In this document: positions 54,302 to 64,000 of the stretch, one piece after another
Numbering within the stretch: position 1 is the first letter of the stretch
Layout of the letters: the number at the start of each line of letters is the position of its first letter
Origin: Nibricoccus sp.
Lineage (GTDB): Bacteria; Verrucomicrobiota; Verrucomicrobiia; Opitutales; Opitutaceae
Direction: 5' to 3'
DNA: 64,000 nucleotides
Assembly (NCBI GenBank): GCA_047602425.1
Contig: JASGHG010000001.1
Location: forward strand, 1,152,001 to 1,216,000
Program-made: the position numbers and the translations under genes
Notes under the pieces: model-generated
The model's input: only the letters and a program-made list of their open reading frames with translations
Database searches by the model: none
What the model was told of the DNA's origin: nothing

Positions 54302-56440
54302 TCACATCTCGCGTTTTACACCGGCGGGCCCTGCGCGATAAATGGAAAGCGTGCTGGCAGGTTCGACTTTAACCTTCTGGCCGCGACAAACGATCTCGCC
54401 CGAAACGGTTTCGCCTGGGTTTACCGGCATGACGGCGAGCAGCATATCGCCATTCTCGGCCGGAATCGCCGAAACATAGGCGCCAGCCAATCCCGTGACC
54501 GGCGAGGGCAAATCGAGTCGCGCAATGGCGGCGGTAAGACCGGCTGCGTCCGCCTCGATTTTGAACGAAACTGGCAGACCCAGGGAGACACGGTGGCCGT
54601 CCACCGTGAGTGCCGGAGCTTCGTCAATCACATGAACCGGAAATTTTGCCGCCACGAGTTTTTGCAACACGGCAAATTCCTTCGCCGTGACCACCCGGGC
54701 GCAAGGAAGAACCACGGCTTTGTAAGTTTGTTTACCCAGCCGCAACACGCCGTTTTCCAACACGGCATCGCCAAGCCAGTTATCGGAAATCATATCCACT
54801 TGCACGCCCGCCGCAGGCATCGCACCCGTGAGGCGATTGACTTTGCTCATGATATCGTCGTTTTCGGGCTCGCGGCCAATCATCATGGTTGCGAGTGGAC
54901 AAACCACCGCAACTTCGGCGACGGGCAGTCTGTAGCCTGTGATGGCATGCACGCGGCGCGTTTTCTCGATCAGCTTCGGCAACAATGGCCATGTTGGGTG
55001 GTTCGGGAAACCAGGTCCAAAATCGCGCCCAGCCCCAATGCCTTTCGTGATGCCGTAGGAATGTTGAATCCACTCGTTGGAAAAAAGCGCCATGAGATCA
55101 TTCCAATAAATGGGCGCAGACTCTTCGTATTTCACGCCCCATTGATTGAAATAAGCGTGTCCGGTTTTTGAATACCGGCCCAGGCTCGTTGCCAGGATCA
55201 TGAAGGATACGTCCTCGTATTTGTCGGCCAGACTGGCTTTGAAATATTTTTCGAAGCTGCCCGCGTCGGTATAACCGGAATCGAGCGCGGAGAGCCCGCG
55301 CCAGTAATCGGCTGAACCGTGATACATATTGTCGGGAATGGTGTGCCAGTTTTGGTGAATCCCCATTCGCAAGGGTCCAAAGCGCTTCTCGCCTTCCTTC
55401 CACATCCGTTCCTCCGCACCAAAAACATAATCCATCACCAGCTGAAAGTAGTCGTTGCGCACGCGCATCTGGCTTTCGTCGTCGAGAGAAAGAAGCAGCG
55501 CGTAAAGTTTCGCCTTCAGGTCATAACCATACTTCGCCTGGAAATCCCGGTAGATGCGTTCGCTGATCGCGTAGTGGCCAAATTGGAGATAGTAACCTGG
55601 TTCGTCCCACCAAAAGCCGTTGAAGCGAATGCCTTCGGCTTTGTAACGATCGAGTAGTTTTATCATTTCGGCCTCATGCGCCGGCGCATCGAATGCGTAC
55701 AAATTTGTGCTGAACCGTGGAAACGCCACGACCCACCATTCACCCGGAGGCAGATCGGGCTTCCCGAACACTTCCACATAGTAAAGACTGCGATTGATAA
55801 AGAAATGATGCTGCGCGGTGATGTCGCGAATCGACGACGTGATCACGCGGCCGTCCTTGCGCTGGTAAGCGAAGACTTTGTCCACACCCACGGGATTCAG
55901 CCAGAGTCCGACTTCGGTCAGCATGTGCACGTCGCGTTTCGAAGGATAATTATAGCGAAGAGTAAAACGCCCGCCTTCCACCTTGCATTCGTTGAGCAAT
56001 GCGCGATCGGCGGGCAGAGTGTTTCCCGGCGCAGGAGATTTCCCCATAAAATCCTGACCGGTGAGCAAAATTTCCGCACCAAAACCTGTTTTCCCAATGA
56101 TGTGGTGTGCGCCGAAACGCGGATCAGGGCCCCAAATGAATTCGATCCCTTCACGCTTGCAGGCTTCGCTCGCGAGTTTCACGGCTGCAATCATCTCGTC
56201 GTCGAAAATCTGGTAGCGCGTCGCCCGCGGCATAACAAAGAGCCCGTCAAAACCAGCGGCTTTCAGATCGGCGAGTTGTTTCAACAAAACCTCCGGATTC
56301 TCGATGGCCTCGTCCTGCCACGTCCAAAACATCGTGGCGAACGGACCAGGTTTTTTTTCAGCGGCGGTCAGCGAAATTCCGCAACTAATAAAAACAACTA
56401 ACACAAAAACACGCAAGGAACGAAAGGTGGAAAGCGGCAT
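54302..56440 (-). CDS. Secreted glycoside hydrolase-like protein (GH106-like N-terminus)
   Basis: PFATMFWTW..QLADLKAAGFDGLFVMPR and WWDEP resemble GH106-type TIM-barrel motifs; YKAVVLP glutamine-amidotransferase-like tail. Confidence 0.5.
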   Translation of the reverse strand: MPLSTFRSLRVFVLVVFISCGISLTAAEKKPGPFATMFWTWQDEAIENPEVLLKQLADLKAAGFDGLFVMPRATRYQIFDDEMIAAVKLASEACKREGIEFIWGPDPRFGAHHIIGKTGFGAEILLTGQDFMGKSPAPGNTLPADRALLNECKVEGGRFTLRYNYPSKRDVHMLTEVGLWLNPVGVDKVFAYQRKDGRVITSSIRDITAQHHFFINRSLYYVEVFGKPDLPPGEWWVVAFPRFSTNLYAFDAPAHEAEMIKLLDRYKAEGIRFNGFWWDEPGYYLQFGHYAISERIYRDFQAKYGYDLKAKLYALLLSLDDESQMRVRNDYFQLVMDYVFGAEERMWKEGEKRFGPLRMGIHQNWHTIPDNMYHGSADYWRGLSALDSGYTDAGSFEKYFKASLADKYEDVSFMILATSLGRYSKTGHAYFNQWGVKYEESAPIYWNDLMALFSNEWIQHSYGITKGIGAGRDFGPGFPNHPTWPLLPKLIEKTRRVHAITGYRLPVAEVAVVCPLATMMIGREPENDDIMSKVNRLTGAMPAAGVQVDMISDNWLGDAVLENGVLRLGKQTYKAVVLPCARVVTAKEFAVLQKLVAAKFPVHVIDEAPALTVDGHRVSLGLPVSFKIEADAAGLTAAIARLDLPSPVTGLAGAYVSAIPAENGDMLLAVMPVNPGETVSGEIVCRGQKVKVEPASTLSIYRAGPAGVKREM

Positions 56441-56555
56441 GGTTCGAGCGAGCCGCCAAAGCCTCCTCACGTCAACTCAGCAGGCCAGGATGCTTGCGCA
56501 ACTTGTTGAGCTGACAGTCCGGCAACGGCGCTGGACTATACTCGGGCCTGCGCCT

Positions 56556-58013
56556 TCACATTGAAGCCAGCAGCTTGCGCAGCGTTTCGTCGACGAGCTT
56601 GGGGTTAGCCTTGCCTTTCGCGGCTTTCATGATCGGACCCTTGAACGCATTGATCGCGCTGTCTTTGCCGGATTTAAACTCGGCAAGCGCCTTGGCGTTG
56701 GCCGCGATGGAGTCGCGACACCATTGTTCAAGTTCGCCCGAGTCGGTCGGCGCGGCTTTCAGGCCGCGGCGGTCAGCGATGGCTTCAGGCAGGTCGCCCA
56801 TGGCGAACATTTCGACAAAGATTTCCTTCGCGGCGTTGTTCAGCACCGTGCCGGCGTCGATCAGCTTCACGAGAGCAGCGATGTGCGCGGGTTTCACCTT
56901 TGAGTCGACGAGAGAAATTTTCGCCGTGCCGATCTCGCGGAGGAGGTCGTTGACGATCCAATTGCCAGCGGCCTGAGCCTTGCCCGGACCGGAAAGTTTC
57001 GCTGCTTCCTCAAAGAAGTCGCTCAGCTCGCGATCGGGCACGAGGACGGATGAAATCGTGTATGGAATCTGATACTGCTCGAAGAAGCGGCGCTGTTTGT
57101 CGAAAGGCAGTTCGGGACATTCAGCTTTGATGCGTGCTTTCCAAGCATCGTCGACTTTCACCGGCATAAGATCCGGGTCGGGGAAGTAACGGTAATCGTG
57201 CGCCATTTCCTTCGAGCGAAGCGACTGCGAGGCGCCGGTCTGGCCGTCGTAGTCGCGCGTTTCCTGAACGATAATACCGCCGCTTTCCTTTACCGCGATC
57301 TGGCGGGCAATTTCGTGGGCAATACCATCGCGAACAAACGAAATGGAGTTGAGGTTCTTGAGTTCGACTTTGGTTCCGAGCTTTGTTTCGCCAACGGGAC
57401 GAATGGAAATGTTAGCGTCGCAACGCATCTGGCCTTTTTCCATATCGCAGTCGGAAATGCCGCCATAGACCATGGTGTTGCGCAGCGAGGTGAGATACGC
57501 AAACGCTTCCTCCGCGGTATGCATCACGGGCTCGGAGACGATTTCCATCAATGGCGTGCCAGCGCGGTTGTAATCGACGAGCGAATCGACCGCACCATGG
57601 TTGAGCTTGCCGACATCCTCTTCGAGATGGATGCGGGTGAGCGCGATTTTTTTGTGCTCGCCCATCACGTTGCGCGCAGATCCGGGCAGTTCGATCTCAA
57701 CCGATCCATTGAGACAAATCGGTTGGTCGTATTGCGAGATTTGGTAGTTCTTCGGCGAGTCGGGATAGAAATAGTTTTTCCGATCCCATTTGCAAACCGG
57801 TGCGATGTCACAACCAAGCATGAGGCCGGCCTTGATAATCGCGTCGAGCGCGGCCTTGTTCATCACCGGCAGTACGCCGGGAAGCGCAAGCACGACTGGA
57901 TCGGTCAATGTGTTTTCGTCATGACCGTAGCCCGCAGCGACACGCGTGAACATCTTCGACTGCGTCTTTACCTGAACGTGGACTTCAAGACCGATGACGG
58001 CTTCGTATTTCAT
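56556..58013 (-). CDS. gatB: Asp/Glu-tRNA amidotransferase subunit B
   Basis: VIGLEVHVQ, RKNYFYPD, IHLEEDVGK, DYNRAGTPLMEIV, DYRYFPDPDL. Confidence 0.97.
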   Translation of the reverse strand: MKYEAVIGLEVHVQVKTQSKMFTRVAAGYGHDENTLTDPVVLALPGVLPVMNKAALDAIIKAGLMLGCDIAPVCKWDRKNYFYPDSPKNYQISQYDQPICLNGSVEIELPGSARNVMGEHKKIALTRIHLEEDVGKLNHGAVDSLVDYNRAGTPLMEIVSEPVMHTAEEAFAYLTSLRNTMVYGGISDCDMEKGQMRCDANISIRPVGETKLGTKVELKNLNSISFVRDGIAHEIARQIAVKESGGIIVQETRDYDGQTGASQSLRSKEMAHDYRYFPDPDLMPVKVDDAWKARIKAECPELPFDKQRRFFEQYQIPYTISSVLVPDRELSDFFEEAAKLSGPGKAQAAGNWIVNDLLREIGTAKISLVDSKVKPAHIAALVKLIDAGTVLNNAAKEIFVEMFAMGDLPEAIADRRGLKAAPTDSGELEQWCRDSIAANAKALAEFKSGKDSAINAFKGPIMKAAKGKANPKLVDETLRKLLASM

Positions 58014-58037
58014 GGGAGAAGAGGAGAGAGTTTTTTG

Positions 58038-58077
58038 GCCACAGAGAACACGGAGCTCGGACACAGAGGTCACAGAG
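58038..58077. repeat. Inverted-repeat arm (40 bp, 9-nt periodic) downstream of GxxExxY gene A
   Basis: GCCACAGAG-AACACGGAG-CTCGG-ACACAGAG-GTCACAGAG; 36/40 identical to the reverse complement of 58459-58498. Confidence 0.95.
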
Positions 58078-58450
58078 CCAAGCGGCGAAGCCCGTGTTTG
58101 GTAAGCAAGGTGGTTCTAAAATTGAAGAGTAGACCGATGCGGCAGGAGGAAAACCGCAGGTAGGTTAGGACTTGGGCTTCATGCACGCCGAGGAGTTCGT
58201 CGATGGCCTTGAGCTCAACTACGACCTTGCCACCCACCAAAAAATCGAGCCGATAGGCATCCTCGATCAACAAGTCTTTATAGCGCACAGAGCAGAGTTT
58301 CTGCTCTTCAAAGGCAATATGGCGGAGAGATAATTCGTGCGCCAGAGCACGTTGGTAAGCGGACTCTAAAAGCACTGGGCCAAGGTCCCGATGGACCTCA
58401 ATTGCCGCACCAATGACTTGCTCAGTCAGCTGATTGATTTCGGCGTCCAT
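58070..58450 (-). CDS. GxxExxY-family protein (PD-(D/E)XK nuclease fold), copy A
   Basis: VIGAAIEVHRDLGPVLLESAYQ, RLDFLV...VVELKA, AQVLTYL, GLLFNF. Confidence 0.9.
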   Translation of the reverse strand: MDAEINQLTEQVIGAAIEVHRDLGPVLLESAYQRALAHELSLRHIAFEEQKLCSVRYKDLLIEDAYRLDFLVGGKVVVELKAIDELLGVHEAQVLTYLRFSSCRIGLLFNFRTTLLTKHGLRRLAL

Positions 58451-58458
58451 GATTTTTT

Positions 58459-58498
58459 CTCCGTGTTCTCTGTGTCCGAGCTCCGTGTCCTCTGTGGC
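58459..58498. repeat. Inverted-repeat arm (40 bp) upstream of GxxExxY gene A
   Basis: CTCCGTGTTCTCTGTGTCCGAGCTCCGTGTCCTCTGTGGC; partner of 58038-58077. Confidence 0.95.
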
Positions 58499-58503
58499 AA
58501 GAC

Positions 58504-59970
58504 TCAGAGATTCGGGGTTTTAGTGGCCCAGTCGTGACCTTTTTCGTAGGCGTGGGCGATAGAGAAAAGTTCGGCTTCCTGGAAAGGCTGGCCGATGATT
58601 TGCAGGCCGATCGGCAAGCCGCTCTGCGAGAAACCACAGGGGATGCTGATGCCGGGCAGGCCGGCGAGGTTCACGCCGATCGTGTAGATATCGCTCAGGT
58701 ACATCGCGAGCGGGTTGGCAGCCTTTTCGCCTTTTTTGAACGCGGGTGTCGGCGAGGTCGGCGTGAGAATCGCGTCAACTTCCTTGTAGGCGTTAAGGAA
58801 ATCCTGACGGATCAACGTGCGAACTTTTTGAGCGCGCAGATAATAAGCGTCGTAATAACCGCTCGAGAGTACGTAAGTGCCGAGGATGATACGGCGCTTC
58901 ACTTCGGGGCCAAAACCTTCTGCGCGCGATTTGAAATAGAGATCGACAATGTCTTTCGCGTCTTTCGAGCGATGACCGTAACGGATGCCATCGTAACGCG
59001 CGAGGTTCGAGGAGCATTCGGCCGTGGCAATGATGTAATAAACGCCTACGCCAAACTCGGTGTGCGGCAGAGAAACATTTTTCACTTCGCAGCCCATCTT
59101 CTCGTAATACGCGATCGCTTTTTCCACAGCAGCGGCCACTTCGGGATCGAGACCCTGGCCGAAATATTCCTTTGGAATGCCGAGCTTCCAAGGTCCTTTG
59201 CGCTTCGTTAGTTCTGCACGATAGTTCGGGATTTCTGTTTTGAACGAAGTGGAGTCGAGCGGATCGTGCCCGGCAATCGCGCCAAGCGTGATCGCAGCAT
59301 CTTCGACCGAGCGGCTGAAGGGGCCAATTTGGTCAAGCGACGAGGCAAACGCGATCAGGCCGTAGCGCGAGACGAGGCCGTAGGTGGGCTTCATGCCGAC
59401 GACGTTGCAGAGCGCCGCAGGTTGGCGGATCGAGCCGCCCGTGTCGGAGCCGAGCGTGACAATGGCCTCGCCAGCTGCGACAGCCGCAGCGCTGCCGCCG
59501 GAGCTGCCACCGGGCACACGTTCGAGATCATAGGGATTGCAGGTCGTGTGAAACGCGGAGTTTTCCGTCGAAGAACCCATCGCGAACTCGTCGAGGTTCA
59601 GACGACCCCAGCAAATTGCGCCGGCGTTTTTCAACTTCTTCGTGACAGTCGCATCGTAAGGCGAAACGAAATTCGCGAGCATCTTCGACGATGCCGTCAA
59701 AGGCTGGCCCGTGACAGCGATCACGTCCTTGATGCCGACCGGAATGCCGTCGAGCGGCCCCCTCGCCTGTCCTACGGCGCGACGTTCGTCGGACGCGCGG
59801 GCCTGCGCGAGCGCGTCGCCCTCGTCGAAGGAGTTGAAGGCTTTGACCTTTGAATCAACGGCCTTGGTTCGGGCGATGACGGCCTGCGTGAGGTCGACCG
59901 AAGAAAGTTTCTTCGTCTCCAGCAAGCCGGAGAGCTCGGTGACTGTTTTGTAGAAGAGTTCGGAGGACAT
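58504..59970 (-). CDS. gatA: Asp/Glu-tRNA amidotransferase subunit A
   Basis: GIPVGIKD, DEFAMGSSTENS, PGGSSGGSAAAVA, LGSDTGGSIRQPA amidase signature; ATG at 59970. Confidence 0.97.
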   Translation of the reverse strand: MSSELFYKTVTELSGLLETKKLSSVDLTQAVIARTKAVDSKVKAFNSFDEGDALAQARASDERRAVGQARGPLDGIPVGIKDVIAVTGQPLTASSKMLANFVSPYDATVTKKLKNAGAICWGRLNLDEFAMGSSTENSAFHTTCNPYDLERVPGGSSGGSAAAVAAGEAIVTLGSDTGGSIRQPAALCNVVGMKPTYGLVSRYGLIAFASSLDQIGPFSRSVEDAAITLGAIAGHDPLDSTSFKTEIPNYRAELTKRKGPWKLGIPKEYFGQGLDPEVAAAVEKAIAYYEKMGCEVKNVSLPHTEFGVGVYYIIATAECSSNLARYDGIRYGHRSKDAKDIVDLYFKSRAEGFGPEVKRRIILGTYVLSSGYYDAYYLRAQKVRTLIRQDFLNAYKEVDAILTPTSPTPAFKKGEKAANPLAMYLSDIYTIGVNLAGLPGISIPCGFSQSGLPIGLQIIGQPFQEAELFSIAHAYEKGHDWATKTPNL

Positions 59971-59978
59971 GTTGTGTC

Positions 59979-60269
59979 TCATTCCACGACTTTCGGGACG
60001 ACGACCATGTTGTTGCGCTGGGCGGGAGCGTTCTTTAGCGCTGCCTCGACCGACAAGCCCGGCTGCGCGACATCGTCTGCCCAAACATTATAAACCGGGA
60101 ACGCGTGCGCGGTCGGCTCCACGCCGCTCACGTCGACTTTTTTGAGCTGTTCGATGTAGGTGAGCACATCGCCGAGTTGCGTGGCAAATTTCGCCTTTTC
60201 CTCGGCAGTCAGCGCGAGCCGGGCCAGGTTGGCGACGTGGTCGATATTGAGGTCAGTCGGGGCAGACAT
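59979..60269 (-). CDS. gatC: Asp/Glu-tRNA amidotransferase subunit C
   Basis: HVANLARLAL, VDVSGVEPT, ALKNAP...VPKVVE. Confidence 0.95.
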   Translation of the reverse strand: MSAPTDLNIDHVANLARLALTAEEKAKFATQLGDVLTYIEQLKKVDVSGVEPTAHAFPVYNVWADDVAQPGLSVEAALKNAPAQRNNMVVVPKVVE

Positions 60270-60273
60270 GTTG

Positions 60274-62733
60274 TTATTTTCGAATTTGGTAAGGCGTAGT
60301 TTTAACCAACTCGTCCTGCAATTTATTGAAGGCGACGCTCACTTCGTCGTCGGTCAACGTGCGGTCGGGCGCGCGAAAAACGAGCGAGAAGGCCAGGCTC
60401 TTTTTGCCGTCGGGCAAACCAGTCCCTTGGTACACGTCGAAAACCTCGACCGTTTCGAGCACAAAGGCCGTGCCGGAAGCAGAGCGCGCAAGCTTCACAA
60501 CGGTTTTCTGCGCCTCGGAAGCGGGCAGGTTCTTGTCGACGACAAGTGCGAGGTCGCGCAGCGCTGCGGGGAATAGACTGAATGGTTGGTAACGACGATG
60601 CGCTTCAACCGAAGCGAGTTTTTCCGGCAGAACGGCAAAAGTACCCGCGTATATCTTGCCCTCAATGCCAAGTGACTTAACCATCGCCAAATCGACAAGA
60701 CCGAAAGCGGCGCCCCAACCGTGGGCCATCTCGCCAGCCACGGCAGACTGCCCTTCCTGCCAGCCGCGGTGAGCGTAGGTGGCCGGTTGCAACGCCTGCC
60801 TGGACAAATCGACGCCACCGGCCATCGCCAAAGCGGCCACCAGACTCTTCGCGGTGTAGAAGTCAGCTGGTTCGCGTTTAAGCCAGCTGCGGTCGCTGGG
60901 ATTTTCAGCAATCACAAATGCCACCGCGACACACTCAAAGTTTGCGCCGTCGCGTTCGACGAAAATGCGGCCGGTTTCGAACAACCGTGAAGCGGAAACG
61001 CCTCGCGACTGGTTGAGTTTGAGGGTTTCGAGAAGGCCCGGGATCAGCGACGAGCGAAGGTGCGACTGGTCTTCAACAAAAGGATTGGCGAGCGCAAGTT
61101 CGGCCACCGCCGTCGACGAAACCCAAGCCTGCAGTTCGCGCTGCGAACGCAATGTGTAGTTCACGCATTCGTGGAAACGCTGGCCAACAAGCTGATCTGC
61201 AACCTTGCGATTGAAAAGCACGATCGGATCGTCCTCGCCAACTAAACCAGGCGATAGAACCACGCTCGCGGGAATTTTTTCAGTGCCGTAGACGCGCAGG
61301 ACTTCCTCGACGAGGTCAATCGGCCGGTCGAGGTCGTCGCGCCAGCTCGGAATCGAAACCGTCATCGCCGGACCGCGCTCGGGCGTCGGCTCCTCGCGGA
61401 CAATCGTAAGTTCGAGCGCTTCAAGCGCGGCGCGGATATCGGCCTCGGGAATCGTGAAGCCGGCCTTTTCACAAATGTAGCCCGGCGTGACCAAGATCTC
61501 GCGTTGCCACGGGACGTCGGCCCCGATGCGCTGCGTTTGTCCGGCGACTTTGCCACCGGCAATTTCCAAGATCAGATCGATCGCACGGTGGGTCGCTTCT
61601 TCGAGCGAATGGGGATCGACGCCACGCTCGTAACGGTAAGACGAATCGGACGAAAGAACTAATTTCCTGGATGTTGCTCGAATTGACTGACGGCGAAAAT
61701 AAGCGCTTTCGAGCACGAGATCCGTCGTTGTTTCGTCGACACCGGAGTTTTCTCCACCCATGACGCCGGCCACAACCAGCGGCTTGGTCGCATCGGCGAT
61801 GACGAGCATGTGATGATTGAGCACGCGCTCCTTGCCATCGAGCGTGACGAGCTTTTCGCCGTCGATTGCGTGGCGCACGATGATCTCGCGGCCGCCAATT
61901 TTTTTGGCATCAAACGCATGGGTCGGCTGACCGTATTCGAGAAGAACGTAATTGCTGATGTCGACGACGTTGTTGATCGGACGCAGGCCGACGGCCTTGA
62001 GTCGCTCCTGCATCCACGACGGACTTGCTCCGATTTTAACGCCAGTGATCACCGTCGCAGTATAAAGCGGGCAGTCGTGACTCGAATCGACGCGGACGGA
62101 TTTCAGCAGATCCTCGCGCGGTGTCGGGTCGGCCGCGGTGGGCGTGAAGGTGACTTCCGGATATTTGAGCTCCAACTTGAACCAAGCGGCGAGTTCGCGC
62201 GCGATGCCGATATGGCTTAGGCAATCGGGCCGGTTCGGTGTGACTTCGATGTCAAACACCACATCGCCCGGAGGCAGTACCGTGTTGATCGGCGTGCCAA
62301 GTGCAGGTTTGCCGTCGAGGATGAGCAAACCAGCCGATTCTTCGGAAATCGTGAGCTCCTTGGCCGAACACATCATGCCATCGGAAAGCTGGCCGCGGAC
62401 CTTGGCCTGCTTGATCGTGAAATTACCAGGTAGCACGGCGCCAGGCAGCGCCACGGGCACGCGGTTGCCGGCGTCGCAGTTGGGTGCGCCGCAGACGATC
62501 GTCTTCACCCCGCCAGCCGAACCAACGTCCACCGTACAGACAGAGAGCTTGTCGGCATTCGGGTGCTTGGCGCGAGTGAGGATTTCGCCAACGACAACGT
62601 CTTTTAGCGCTGGAGCGCCGGTACGGATGACCTGTTCGACCTCGAAACCGAGGAACGTGATCGCGCGACAGATATCGTCGACCGAAGCGTCGAGGCTGAT
62701 GTAAGACTTGAGCCAATTGAGAGAAATTTTCAC
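60274..62733 (-). CDS. pheT: Phenylalanine-tRNA ligase beta subunit
   Basis: MKISLNWL, HPNADKL, IVCGAPN, TPNRPDCLS, RYERGVD, RDLALVV, RTLTDDEV. Confidence 0.97.
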   Translation of the reverse strand: MKISLNWLKSYISLDASVDDICRAITFLGFEVEQVIRTGAPALKDVVVGEILTRAKHPNADKLSVCTVDVGSAGGVKTIVCGAPNCDAGNRVPVALPGAVLPGNFTIKQAKVRGQLSDGMMCSAKELTISEESAGLLILDGKPALGTPINTVLPPGDVVFDIEVTPNRPDCLSHIGIARELAAWFKLELKYPEVTFTPTAADPTPREDLLKSVRVDSSHDCPLYTATVITGVKIGASPSWMQERLKAVGLRPINNVVDISNYVLLEYGQPTHAFDAKKIGGREIIVRHAIDGEKLVTLDGKERVLNHHMLVIADATKPLVVAGVMGGENSGVDETTTDLVLESAYFRRQSIRATSRKLVLSSDSSYRYERGVDPHSLEEATHRAIDLILEIAGGKVAGQTQRIGADVPWQREILVTPGYICEKAGFTIPEADIRAALEALELTIVREEPTPERGPAMTVSIPSWRDDLDRPIDLVEEVLRVYGTEKIPASVVLSPGLVGEDDPIVLFNRKVADQLVGQRFHECVNYTLRSQRELQAWVSSTAVAELALANPFVEDQSHLRSSLIPGLLETLKLNQSRGVSASRLFETGRIFVERDGANFECVAVAFVIAENPSDRSWLKREPADFYTAKSLVAALAMAGGVDLSRQALQPATYAHRGWQEGQSAVAGEMAHGWGAAFGLVDLAMVKSLGIEGKIYAGTFAVLPEKLASVEAHRRYQPFSLFPAALRDLALVVDKNLPASEAQKTVVKLARSASGTAFVLETVEVFDVYQGTGLPDGKKSLAFSLVFRAPDRTLTDDEVSVAFNKLQDELVKTTPYQIRK

Positions 62734-62746
62734 GGAAGAATTTTTT

Positions 62747-62773
62747 ACAGAAGATAACGAAGGAAACGAAGCG
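62747..62773. repeat. Inverted-repeat arm (27 bp = 3 x 9 nt) downstream of GxxExxY gene B
   Basis: ACAGAAGAT-AACGAAGGA-AACGAAGCG; 26/27 identical to the reverse complement of 63188-63214. Confidence 0.95.
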
Positions 62774-62774
62774 T

Positions 62775-63179
62775 CTAAGGTAGATTTGCGCCAGGAGGGA
62801 TTAAACGAGAGATCCCATTTTTCAGAATGACTTCGTGGAAATTGATCAGAAGCCCGACAGGAATATTTAGCAGTTTCATGTAACTCAGCAGTTGAGCCTT
62901 GTGAATGGGAAGAATGCGTTCAACAGACTTAACTTCGATCAAGAGACAATCGCCGGCCAAAACATCAAAGCGTAGCGGCTCGTCGAACGTTAGCTCTTGA
63001 TAGGTAACTCGGACAAGTTTCTGGCTGACCGCCGAGATTTTTCTCAACGAAAACTCGTGCAGCAAGCAACGCTCGTAGATGGATTCGATCAAGCCGGGGC
63101 CTTTGTCGCGGTGGACCTCTATAGCGGCGCCAATGACCTCATTACTCAAGGCATCAGCTTTTACGTAGAGCGCGTGCAT
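62775..63179 (-). CDS. GxxExxY-family protein (PD-(D/E)XK nuclease fold), copy B
   Basis: VIGAAIEVHRDKGPGLIESIYE, RFDVL...LIEVKS, AQLLSYM, GLLINF. Confidence 0.92.
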   Translation of the reverse strand: MHALYVKADALSNEVIGAAIEVHRDKGPGLIESIYERCLLHEFSLRKISAVSQKLVRVTYQELTFDEPLRFDVLAGDCLLIEVKSVERILPIHKAQLLSYMKLLNIPVGLLINFHEVILKNGISRLIPPGANLP

Positions 63180-63187
63180 ACGGGGAT

Positions 63188-63214
63188 CGCTTCGTTTCCT
63201 TCGTTACCTTCTGT
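63188..63214. repeat. Inverted-repeat arm (27 bp) upstream of GxxExxY gene B
   Basis: CGCTTCGTTTCCTTCGTTACCTTCTGT; partner of 62747-62773. Confidence 0.95.
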
Positions 63215-63225
63215 TCAATTCCGCT

Positions 63226-63999
63226 TCAGGCGAACTGCTTTAGGAAGCGGACGTCGTTTTGGTAGAAATAGCGGATGTCATCGATGCCGTAGAGGAGCAT
63301 CGCGAGACGCTCTAAGCCCATGCCAAAAGCGTAACCACTCCAGACAGACGAATCGTAGCCGACACCGTCAAACACGGTCGGATCGACCATGCCGCAACCG
63401 CCAATTTCGATCCATTCCTTGTTCACCTTCGGCAGGTGCTTGGCGGAGAGATCGACTTCGAAACTTGGTTCGGTGTAGCCGAAATAGTGCGGACGAAAAC
63501 GCGTCTTGGTGTCCTTGCCGAGCAGTGAGGCAAAGATGTAGTCGAGCAACGCCTTCAAGTCGCGCACGGTGACATTCTTGTCGACGTAGAGGCACTCGAG
63601 TTGGTGGAAGTTGGCCGAGTGTGTGGCGTCAGTCGTGTCGCGACGGTAAACGCGCCCGGGTGAGACGATGCGGATCGGCGGCTTGCCTTTGAGCATGGTG
63701 CGGATCTGGACGGACGACGTATGCGTGCGCAGCAGGTACTTTTCGTTCTGATGCTTTTTCGAAATATTGCCGAACTTGGCGTTATCAGGAAGATAGAAAG
63801 TATCCTGGGCATCGCGGGCCGGATGATCGGCGGGGGTGTTAAGCGCATCGAAACAGTAGTATTCGGTTTCGACCTCTGGGCCCTCGACGACGGAGAAACC
63901 GACTTTACGCAGGATGCGGCACATTTCTTCCCGCACCATTGTGAGTGGATGGTGGGTGCCGAAGGCGAGATCGGGCGACGGCAGCGTCGGATCGATTGC
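63226..63999 (-). CDS. pheS: Phenylalanine-tRNA ligase alpha subunit (5' part outside window)
   Basis: [50 protein letters not shown]; frame open to the window edge. Confidence 0.97.
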
Positions 64000-64000
64000 G

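Follow-up and report, generated by a model that had tools for sequence, protein, structure and literature searches.

The window analysed here is a 64,000-nt stretch of Nibricoccus sp. (Opitutaceae; contig JASGHG010000001.1, positions 1,152,001 to 1,216,000), in which two short genes of the GxxExxY family, each enclosed by a pair of inverted arms, lie within an aminoacylation operon. Profile searches gave the minus-strand order pheS, GxxExxY gene 2, pheT, gatC, gatA, GxxExxY gene 1 and gatB. The initial annotation, made from the letters alone, had proposed the order pheS-[IR-GxxExxY-IR]-pheT-gatC-gatA-[IR-GxxExxY-IR]-gatB (IR, inverted repeat), and the gene calls, profiles and inverted-repeat search all bear it out. 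A small gene with its arms is referred to as a cassette below, and the features, in window coordinates, are as follows.

63226..64000, minus strand, pheS (3′ part), host gene, by gene call and profile match
63188..63214, minus strand, cassette 2, 5′ arm, with ACAGAAG/AACGAAG units in 9-nt phasing, 11 nt past the pheS stop
62775..63179, minus strand, GxxExxY gene 2, 134 aa, by TIGR04256/PF13366
62747..62773, minus strand, cassette 2, 3′ arm, 13 nt ahead of the pheT GTG, 26/27 complementary to the 5′ arm
60274..62733, minus strand, pheT, host gene, by gene call and profile match
59979..60269, minus strand, gatC, host gene, by gene call and profile match
58504..59970, minus strand, gatA, host gene, by gene call and profile match
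58459..58498, minus strand, cassette 1, 5′ arm, with CAC[A/G]GAG units spaced 9/13/9, by inverted-repeat search
58070..58450, minus strand, GxxExxY gene 1, 126 aa, by TIGR04256/PF13366
58038..58077, minus strand, cassette 1, 3′ arm, overlapping the gene 1 stop codon by 8 nt, 24 nt ahead of the gatB ATG
56556..58013, minus strand, gatB, host gene, by gene call and profile match

The two longest inverted repeats of positions 56000-64000 are the arm pairs that bracket the small genes, i.e., 58038-58077/58459-58498 in cassette 1 (40 nt, 90% match) and 62747-62773/63188-63214 in cassette 2 (27 nt, 96% match). Arms built of even 9-nt units had been claimed for both, which approximately holds for cassette 2, where the heptamers are spaced 9-10 nt, but not for cassette 1 with its spacing of 9/13/9 nt; the arms at the other GxxExxY genes of the host genome (G000; complete, 5.16 Mb) have a 10-nt periodicity. 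In RNA folding, the two cassettes reached z-scores of -8.6 and -3.8 with 0/100 shuffles as good, and single arms folded no better than shuffles in 8/8 strands. The G+C contents of the small genes were 52% and 48%, and those of the host genes 56-58%. Judged from its sequence and position, the GGAG that the last unit of the cassette 1 5′ arm places 8 nt ahead of the ATG is a possible ribosome-binding site. No transposase was found at the locus, in agreement with the initial annotation; no Rfam match was obtained within 57500-64000, and promoter and terminator scans returned chance-level counts (2 vs. 1.9 and 8 vs. 8.1).

Both encoded proteins exceeded the curated cut-offs of the GxxExxY/PDDEXK_3 family, with TIGR04256 matches at E 1e-38 and 8e-37 (132 and 126 bits vs. 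a cut-off of 35) and PF13366 (PDDEXK_3) matches of 132 and 121 bits (cut-off 22); in a test for a GIY-YIG domain, PF13366/TIGR04256 were the only matches. The two proteins are 45% identical to each other and their arm types differ, so that the claimed divergence of the cassettes stands. In the gene 1 protein the catalytic-type residues E29, D69, E79, K81, Q93 and Y97 are intact, and among 162 homologues K81 is conserved in 162, D69 and E29 in 161 each, Y97 in 155 and Q93 in 153. The AlphaFold2 model of this protein (pLDDT 95) showed the PD-(D/E)XK fold in structure comparison, the best match being Cas4 SSO0001 (Z 8.5, root-mean-square deviation 3.2, 98 aligned residues), with Hjc at Z 6.8; Cas4 was also the best Foldseek match (E 0.007). 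A sequence search of the PDB returned nothing significant, its sole match being T7 endonuclease I at E 0.6, and the homodimer prediction scored 0.00. The claimed PD-(D/E)XK fold is therefore borne out by the model and the structure comparison, and membership in the superfamily is assigned from this predicted fold together with the catalytic D...E-x-K residues. The model shares its fold with Cas4/RecB-like and Holliday-junction-resolving PD-(D/E)XK nucleases, but scores of this middling size are common to many nucleases, and show the fold, not the substrate. By its sequence, the protein is a single-domain one of ~125 aa with an intact active-site pattern of RecB/Cas4 type. The function of PF13366 is given as 'Unknown' in the part of the published account cited here (PMC3424549). 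Elsewhere in the set, two GxxExxY domains are fused in tandem in one 277-aa open frame (L136, G008:C1:5003436-5004194).

To evaluate whether arms generally accompany GxxExxY genes, as the initial annotation had suggested checking, 172 loci were collected, of which 162 were scorable (7 partial loci and 3 at contig edges were dropped); the GTDB and viral sets came from a narrower alignment (A2) and cover one large clade. An inverted repeat with a score of at least 13 was present at 120/162 loci vs. 4/397 shifted control windows, in similar shares of the relatives (64/86) and the GTDB loci (56/76). Loci with GxxExxY span at least 12 phyla and include an archaeon, while the viral contig collection yielded one locus only. 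Where a neighbour was recognisable, it was co-oriented with the small gene in 96/98 cases upstream and 91/105 downstream.

The repeat type was then compared with the protein tree (quick IQ-TREE, 162 proteins), for which 100/162 rows were labelled with the last base of the unit and 62 were unlabelled. This base required 7 changes on the tree vs. a shuffled mean of 29.6, with 0/200 shuffles as low, and in one clade with SH-aLRT 97 all 66 labelled members end the unit in G and none in T. In the proteins, residues 30, 96 and 118-121 (numbered as in cassette 1) distinguish the clades. Since kin share labels, the prediction was tested on new data, i.e., 80 metagenomic cassette-2 homologues of 67-82% identity, of which 76 were scorable and 4 were dropped. 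A cassette-2-type arm lay within 150 nt of 76/76 homologues but in only 5/79 control windows; a cassette-1-type arm was near 0/76, and the GTDB loci of the wider clade had a cassette-2-type arm in 0/75. Only ~10 of the 76 sit at pheS-pheT; the rest occur in varied neighbourhoods (parB, secretin/rho, methyltransferase, PIN, sulfatase-like, many without a match) and varied arm arrangements. These comparisons indicated that it is the sequence identity of the arm, rather than its ability to enclose the gene, that travels with the protein. Such tracking of protein clade by repeat type fits the suggestion of the initial annotation that the nuclease may recognise its own repeat.

Further, the arms were found to be dispersed across the host genome. 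G000 holds five GxxExxY genes, each lying between co-oriented genes and between its own inverted arms, and the five genes correspond to five arm types, each of which also occurs as a gene-less family. The five types gave 64, 47, 45, 19 and 11 matches (the third, h3, and fourth, h4, overlap) vs. 0 in the reversed genome; the cassette 1 family has 64 copies and the cassette 2 family 47-58, depending on the threshold. After merging, 192 arms remained, which form 61 inward pairs, 2 close outward pairs and 70 singles; 5 inward pairs contain a gene and 56 do not, and 59/61 are of the same type on both sides. With crude gene calls, 162/192 arms lie outside called genes, and 43/56 gene-less pairs lie between co-oriented genes vs. 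857/1534 comparable background gaps (p 0.002).

The gene-less pairs are 67-277 nt long, most cassette-2 pairs falling at 113-150 nt. In G000, most of their interiors show no relation to one another (blastn gave 1 weak pair), and they carry no trace of GxxExxY coding sequence, the only matches being of 13-17 nt at chance level. Conservation ends a few bases beyond the first unit, with no conserved outer ends in G000, and target duplication in the gene-less G000 pairs (25, 16 and 8) showed no excess over shuffles for k=3-5. None of the nine RAYT-like or four-helix genes of G000 (four Y1/RAYT-like, five four-helix-bundle) has these arms within 1.5 kb; RAYT was also considered as the true partner of the arms and rejected, none of the 4 PF01797 matches in G000 having arms within that distance. 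The initial annotation had held that genome-wide, REP-like (repetitive extragenic palindromic) arms unrelated to the genes would count against it; the families are indeed genome-wide and REP-like, but the arms are tied to these genes.

Other repeats were seen in G000 along the way. Two degenerate RAYT-like genes (G000:C1 3303358 and 4445547) have GTAG-type REPs around them, apart from the GxxExxY repeats. A further palindromic family with a TTTGTCAT...ATGACAAA core occurs in inverted pairs (G000:C1 2147289/2148367, 3599370/3599511, 3667653/3667855), and TTACACAGAG-type arm pairs (G000:C1 2043605/2043762, 3442297/3442430) resemble those at the cassette of G016; G000 has no gene that matches them exactly. 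By eye, a central TTCCA...TGGAA hairpin motif recurs inside gene-less cassette-2 pairs (G000:C1 492254, 1430727, 4421731, 4641739), hinting at a common ancestor or at a nested repeat family.

Gene and repeat also co-occur across genomes. Among 31 genomes, in which kin are not independent and genes were assigned to types by eye from the tree, the median repeat counts with vs. without the cognate gene were 27.5 vs. 0, 23 vs. 0 and 19.5 vs. 0. PF13366 is present in 25/31 of these genomes and in many phyla, and period-10 arrays were absent from all 6 genomes without a GxxExxY match. A clade found in G002 and G004 has a sixth arm type of its own; G000 contains neither that clade nor that type.

The two junctions were compared in relatives, with 25/29 gatA-gatB and 27/30 pheS-pheT junctions scorable. 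At gatA-gatB, 4 junctions hold GxxExxY (G000, G003, G011, G005) and 1 (G015) a four-helix-bundle cassette of PF05635 flanked by 7-nt arms; 9 retain remnants of repeats, of several types, with no gene, 2 contain other open reading frames (ORFs), 1 has a 63-nt spacer, and 8/25 were empty (-4 to 28 nt). At pheS-pheT, GxxExxY fills 4 junctions, three with the cassette-2 type and one with the cassette-1 type; another 4 hold PF05635 cassettes and 2 contain other ORFs. Spacers of 79-156 nt were seen in 6, two of these being clearly arm pairs, and 11/27 measured ≤49 nt. Within one genus (pheT N-terminus 90-94% identical) the pheS-pheT junction holds GxxExxY (G000, G002), a four-helix bundle (G004) or nothing (G001, G003). 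Empty junctions, for which the initial annotation had advised looking, thus exist at both sites and even within the genus, and together with the patchy distribution they support its view of the cassettes as inserted. Their sequences have diverged too far from the window to reveal a target duplication at either cassette. An orthologue of gene 2 occupies the same site in G002 (87% aa) and G008. GxxExxY genes lie in other junctions as well, between pheS and what is presumably rplT in G004 and at gatC-gatA in G017, and some junctions, e.g., upstream of alaS, are reused by different clades.

PF05635 genes bracketed by inverted 7-nt tandem arrays were seen at the same or similar junctions (L041, L062, L066, L068, L084, L079; G000:C1 4322497, 624198, 4405381, 3849092), and in G000 a gene-less 7-nt pair (1652428-1652536) separates a gyrB-like from a gyrA-like gene, a position taken by a GxxExxY cassette in G013. 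At the pheS-pheT junction of G029 (L080:1856-2173), the place of GxxExxY between cassette-1-type arms is taken by a hydrophobic ORF of ~65 aa that has no Pfam match, and the same junction of G026 holds a 215-aa ORF with neither Pfam match nor arms (L085:847-1491). In the window itself, a 722-aa ORF (54302-56470, minus strand) with no Pfam match at E 0.01 lies directly downstream of gatB.

Substitution rates were estimated for several cassettes. Between G000 and G002, the cassette 2 gene has a nonsynonymous divergence (dN) of 0.081 and a synonymous divergence (dS) of 1.19, and the adjacent pheT has a dS of 1.17. A further cassette sits at argF-argG in 7 genomes, which belong to three genera, and dN/dS is about 0.03-0.09 for these two. 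Cassette 1 compared with G003 was saturated, with a pS of 0.76 vs. 0.55-0.58 in host genes, so it may have been replaced at its site or may evolve faster. As to inheritance at a stable site, the evidence is mixed: the dS of cassette 2 matches that of pheT and the argF-argG site is stable, while cassette 1 and a cassette at an NAD-synthase site exceed the host divergence, and clades occur at several sites. Overall, purifying selection acts on the genes, and they appear to stay at their sites for long periods.

The small gene lies in operon junctions, in the orientation of its neighbours, next to arrays in which 3-4 heptamers follow one another at 9-10 nt and whose sequence is specific to the protein clade. 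On balance we lean, by a little more than even, to the explanation that each cassette is the gene-bearing member of a domesticated PD-(D/E)XK nuclease-repeat partnership acting on DNA, whose protein would recognise its phased cognate repeats. Under this explanation, read-through transcription of the host operon would express the GxxExxY gene; the protein would occupy the phased units, which are spaced by roughly one helical turn, in several copies, and would nick or cut in or close to the arms. The ensuing repair and recombination, with no DDE transposase involved, could slowly copy arm pairs to new intergenic sites, delete the gene to leave gene-less pairs, and let cassettes displace one another at a junction. 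The gene would seldom move and would be inherited mostly vertically, like RAYT and ssnA, and the RNA stem at the two window loci would be a by-product that at most damps the expression of the nuclease.

Several observations weigh against the DNA partnership. Arm and protein could co-vary simply because they are inherited together as one linked unit. The gene 1 protein carries Val at the first Gly of the GxxExxY motif (G26V; codon 26, window 58373-58375), where 155/162 homologues have Gly. Arms around genes are better paired than gene-less ones, with mismatches at 8/146 vs. 232/1212 positions. Repeats without a detectable cognate gene were counted for the cassette-2 type in G003 (42), G006 (23) and G019 (19), for the GGAACTCAGGAA type in G003 (39) and the complete genome G007 (41), and for the cassette-1 type in G007 (69) and G006 (31); conversely, three genomes with a cassette-2-clade gene hold only 0-3 such repeats. 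Five of the six genomes without a GxxExxY gene are small (≤2 Mb). Four-helix-bundle genes, whose proteins are not known to have nuclease activity, show the same packaging as GxxExxY. In G008, 19/20 chosen gene-less cassette-2-type copies form one ~178-nt family resembling miniature inverted-repeat transposable elements (MITEs), with a conserved interior and extra outer inverted ends (L231-L249, e.g., C1:860343-860520) and a 4-bp target duplication in 4/10 scorable copies (9/19 had no recognisable ends), which suggests that something else, another transposase, probably moves the arms there.

The initial annotation had favoured a different mechanism, an mRNA intervening sequence (IVS) whose stem would loop out the gene and leave the operon barely disturbed. 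In full, such a mechanism would have the arms under selection for pairing in the mRNA, with the stem cleaved by RNase III or by the protein itself and the gene looped out or removed. Several observations agree with it: strong stems form at both loci, of a length similar to the 28-bp stem of the Coxiella 23S IVS, whose partly consulted description also records heptamer repeats (PMC4990558); host neighbours and gene-less pairs alike show the co-orientation bias given above; PF05635 genes share the junctions; G000 has RNase III (rnc); arms around genes pair better than gene-less ones; and where the arms have period 10, spacer bases agree within a cassette (0.70 vs. 0.44, a figure confounded by close kin). 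However, spacer bases of period-9 arms do not co-vary (0.50 vs. 0.43), and the nearest arms of the 76 cassette-2 homologues point inward in only 20, with 29 direct, 18 outward and 9 single (12, 11, 5 and 5 in the 33 left after dereplication), although more distant arms could still pair. On the transcribed strand, G·U pairs were not in excess over A·C, at 52 vs. 68 in gene-less pairs; for gene cassettes the counts were 85 vs. 114, a bias the other way (p 0.047). In gene-less pairs, mismatches within pairs equalled or exceeded those between pairs (5.32 vs. 5.14, 6.12 vs. 5.41 and 5.12 vs. 5.11), so partner arms resemble each other no more than they resemble arms taken from other pairs. Besides, a pure stem has no need of clade-specific sequence, 70/192 arms are unpaired, 0/251 GxxExxY loci (flanks 0.45-1.5 kb) match the host rRNA operon, located by a short primer motif, with no arm inside it, and cutting without religation would presumably split the operon mRNA. 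The scarcity of inward arms and the lack of G·U enrichment weaken the loop-out in particular, and we regard this mechanism as unlikely. Of the link to the 23S IVS that had been drawn, the part that holds is that PF05635 cassettes occupy the same two junctions in relatives; looping out as a general mechanism is not supported.

The arms might otherwise be part of a general repeat or MITE system that the transposase of an insertion sequence (IS) or a host enzyme mobilises in trans, with small genes (GxxExxY, four-helix bundle, others) captured between them as cargo. The G008 family with its duplications speaks for this, as do the orphan repeats, the unrelated small ORF between cassette-1-type arms in G029, and the different cargo genes at the same junctions. 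Such capture is hard to reconcile with the strict clade-to-arm matching across phyla and neighbourhoods, and the four-helix genes of G000 have their own, different 7-nt arms in 4/5 cases (by eye). The outer ends of the G008 family are absent from G000, G002, G004 and G007, no transposase with these ends was found in 9 loci (one ISL3 fragment lies in L265, ~1.5 kb from an end motif), and G000 has neither conserved outer ends nor duplications; we consider a cargo origin improbable. One G008 copy appears inside the 5′ arm of the G008 pheS-pheT cassette (L083). A further alternative is a regulator or defence gene that benefits the host, with the arms as operators or recognition marks (autoregulation, self/non-self marking or recombination control) and the gene-less pairs as gutted old cassettes rather than spread copies. 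The strong purifying selection and long residence, as at argF-argG, the mostly unrelated gene-less interiors, and the modulation of transformation by SsnA in Neisseria, as stated in the portion of that report drawn on here (PMC11893778), fit this alternative, while the interiors without coding trace, the type-specific lengths of gene-less pairs and the frequent loss and replacement within the genus do not. It is quite unlikely as a replacement for the DNA partnership, although the two are compatible and do not exclude each other.

A search of the literature, which did not extend to subscription papers and supplements, where Ssn or REP papers could mention it, returned no description of a pairing of GxxExxY with repeats; the gene-repeat association is real, widespread and apparently undescribed. 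Each GxxExxY clade gains a predicted DNA substrate, and a simple assay of cognate vs. non-cognate arms becomes possible; several unannotated intergenic repeat families, about 190 arms in G000, would be explained, and essential operon junctions emerge as sites that swap occupants within a genus, the swapping at two junctions of one operon being, together with the tests of arm arrangement and of strand, the contribution of this locus. If the activity is confirmed, these very small nucleases with different natural specificities could be useful as tools. A broader picture, which we put forward tentatively and think possible rather than probable, is that the GxxExxY proteins form a large, naturally diversified family of sequence-specific endonucleases of ~125 aa, with each clade recognising a phased heptamer array of its own. 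They would spread themselves and gene-less pairs into operon junctions by cut-and-repair, with neither transposase nor target duplication. Their competitors for these junctions would be four-helix-bundle cassettes, with the 23S rRNA IVS as a special case of the latter, and next to RAYT/REP and Ssn/SRM the GxxExxY proteins would make up a third nuclease-repeat partnership of independent origin.

Among known systems, MITEs and IS elements have gene-bearing and gene-less forms that share terminal inverted repeats. The GxxExxY system has both forms too, but lacks a DDE/HUH transposase and a multi-copy gene, and in G000 shows no target duplication and unrelated interiors. The 23S rRNA IVS (S23p/PF05635; PMC4990558), as far as the excerpted account goes, is likewise a small ORF within a stem of 27-40 bp with short tandem units, about 430-490 nt in all, and PF05635 cassettes share the two junctions in relatives. 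GxxExxY differs in its protein family and in its location outside rRNA; an enclosing stem is present at the two window cassettes but is not general in the cassette-2 clade, and the coding sequence is under strong purifying selection, while the Coxiella ORF is described there as decaying.

The Ssn/SRM system (SsnA-NTS, site-specific single-stranded DNA nucleases) is closer, since, in the sections of the report available (PMC11893778), a small single-domain nuclease gene is flanked by a genome-dispersed repeat whose variants are matched to protein variants. There, 42% of ssnA homologues are flanked on both sides, compared with 74% (120/162) of GxxExxY loci with inverted arms. In contrast, Ssn is a GIY-YIG nuclease that reads a self-folding hairpin, while GxxExxY is PD-(D/E)XK by its predicted fold and its arms do not fold singly. 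The REPIN/RAYT system (REPtron; 10.1101/2021.07.10.451892; PMC3733652), according to the portions of these sources relied on, resembles it in a gene that lies between cognate repeats and, for GxxExxY probably, moves rarely and is inherited vertically, in several gene-repeat pairs per genome, ~100-nt extragenic inverted doublets with conserved arms and a variable spacer, to which the 56 gene-less pairs correspond, and rarity on viral contigs. It differs in that the GxxExxY partner is a PD-(D/E)XK nuclease (PF13366) rather than an HUH/Y1 transposase, in that single GxxExxY arms are phased tandem heptamers, not palindromes, with consensus ends lacking GTAG/CGTC, in the preference for operon junctions, and in the occurrence in an archaeon, REPINs being reported undetected in archaea in those same portions. 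By analogy, the GxxExxY system would work like RAYT/REPIN or Ssn/NTS, but it appears to belong to neither, its protein and its repeats both differing from those that define the two systems.

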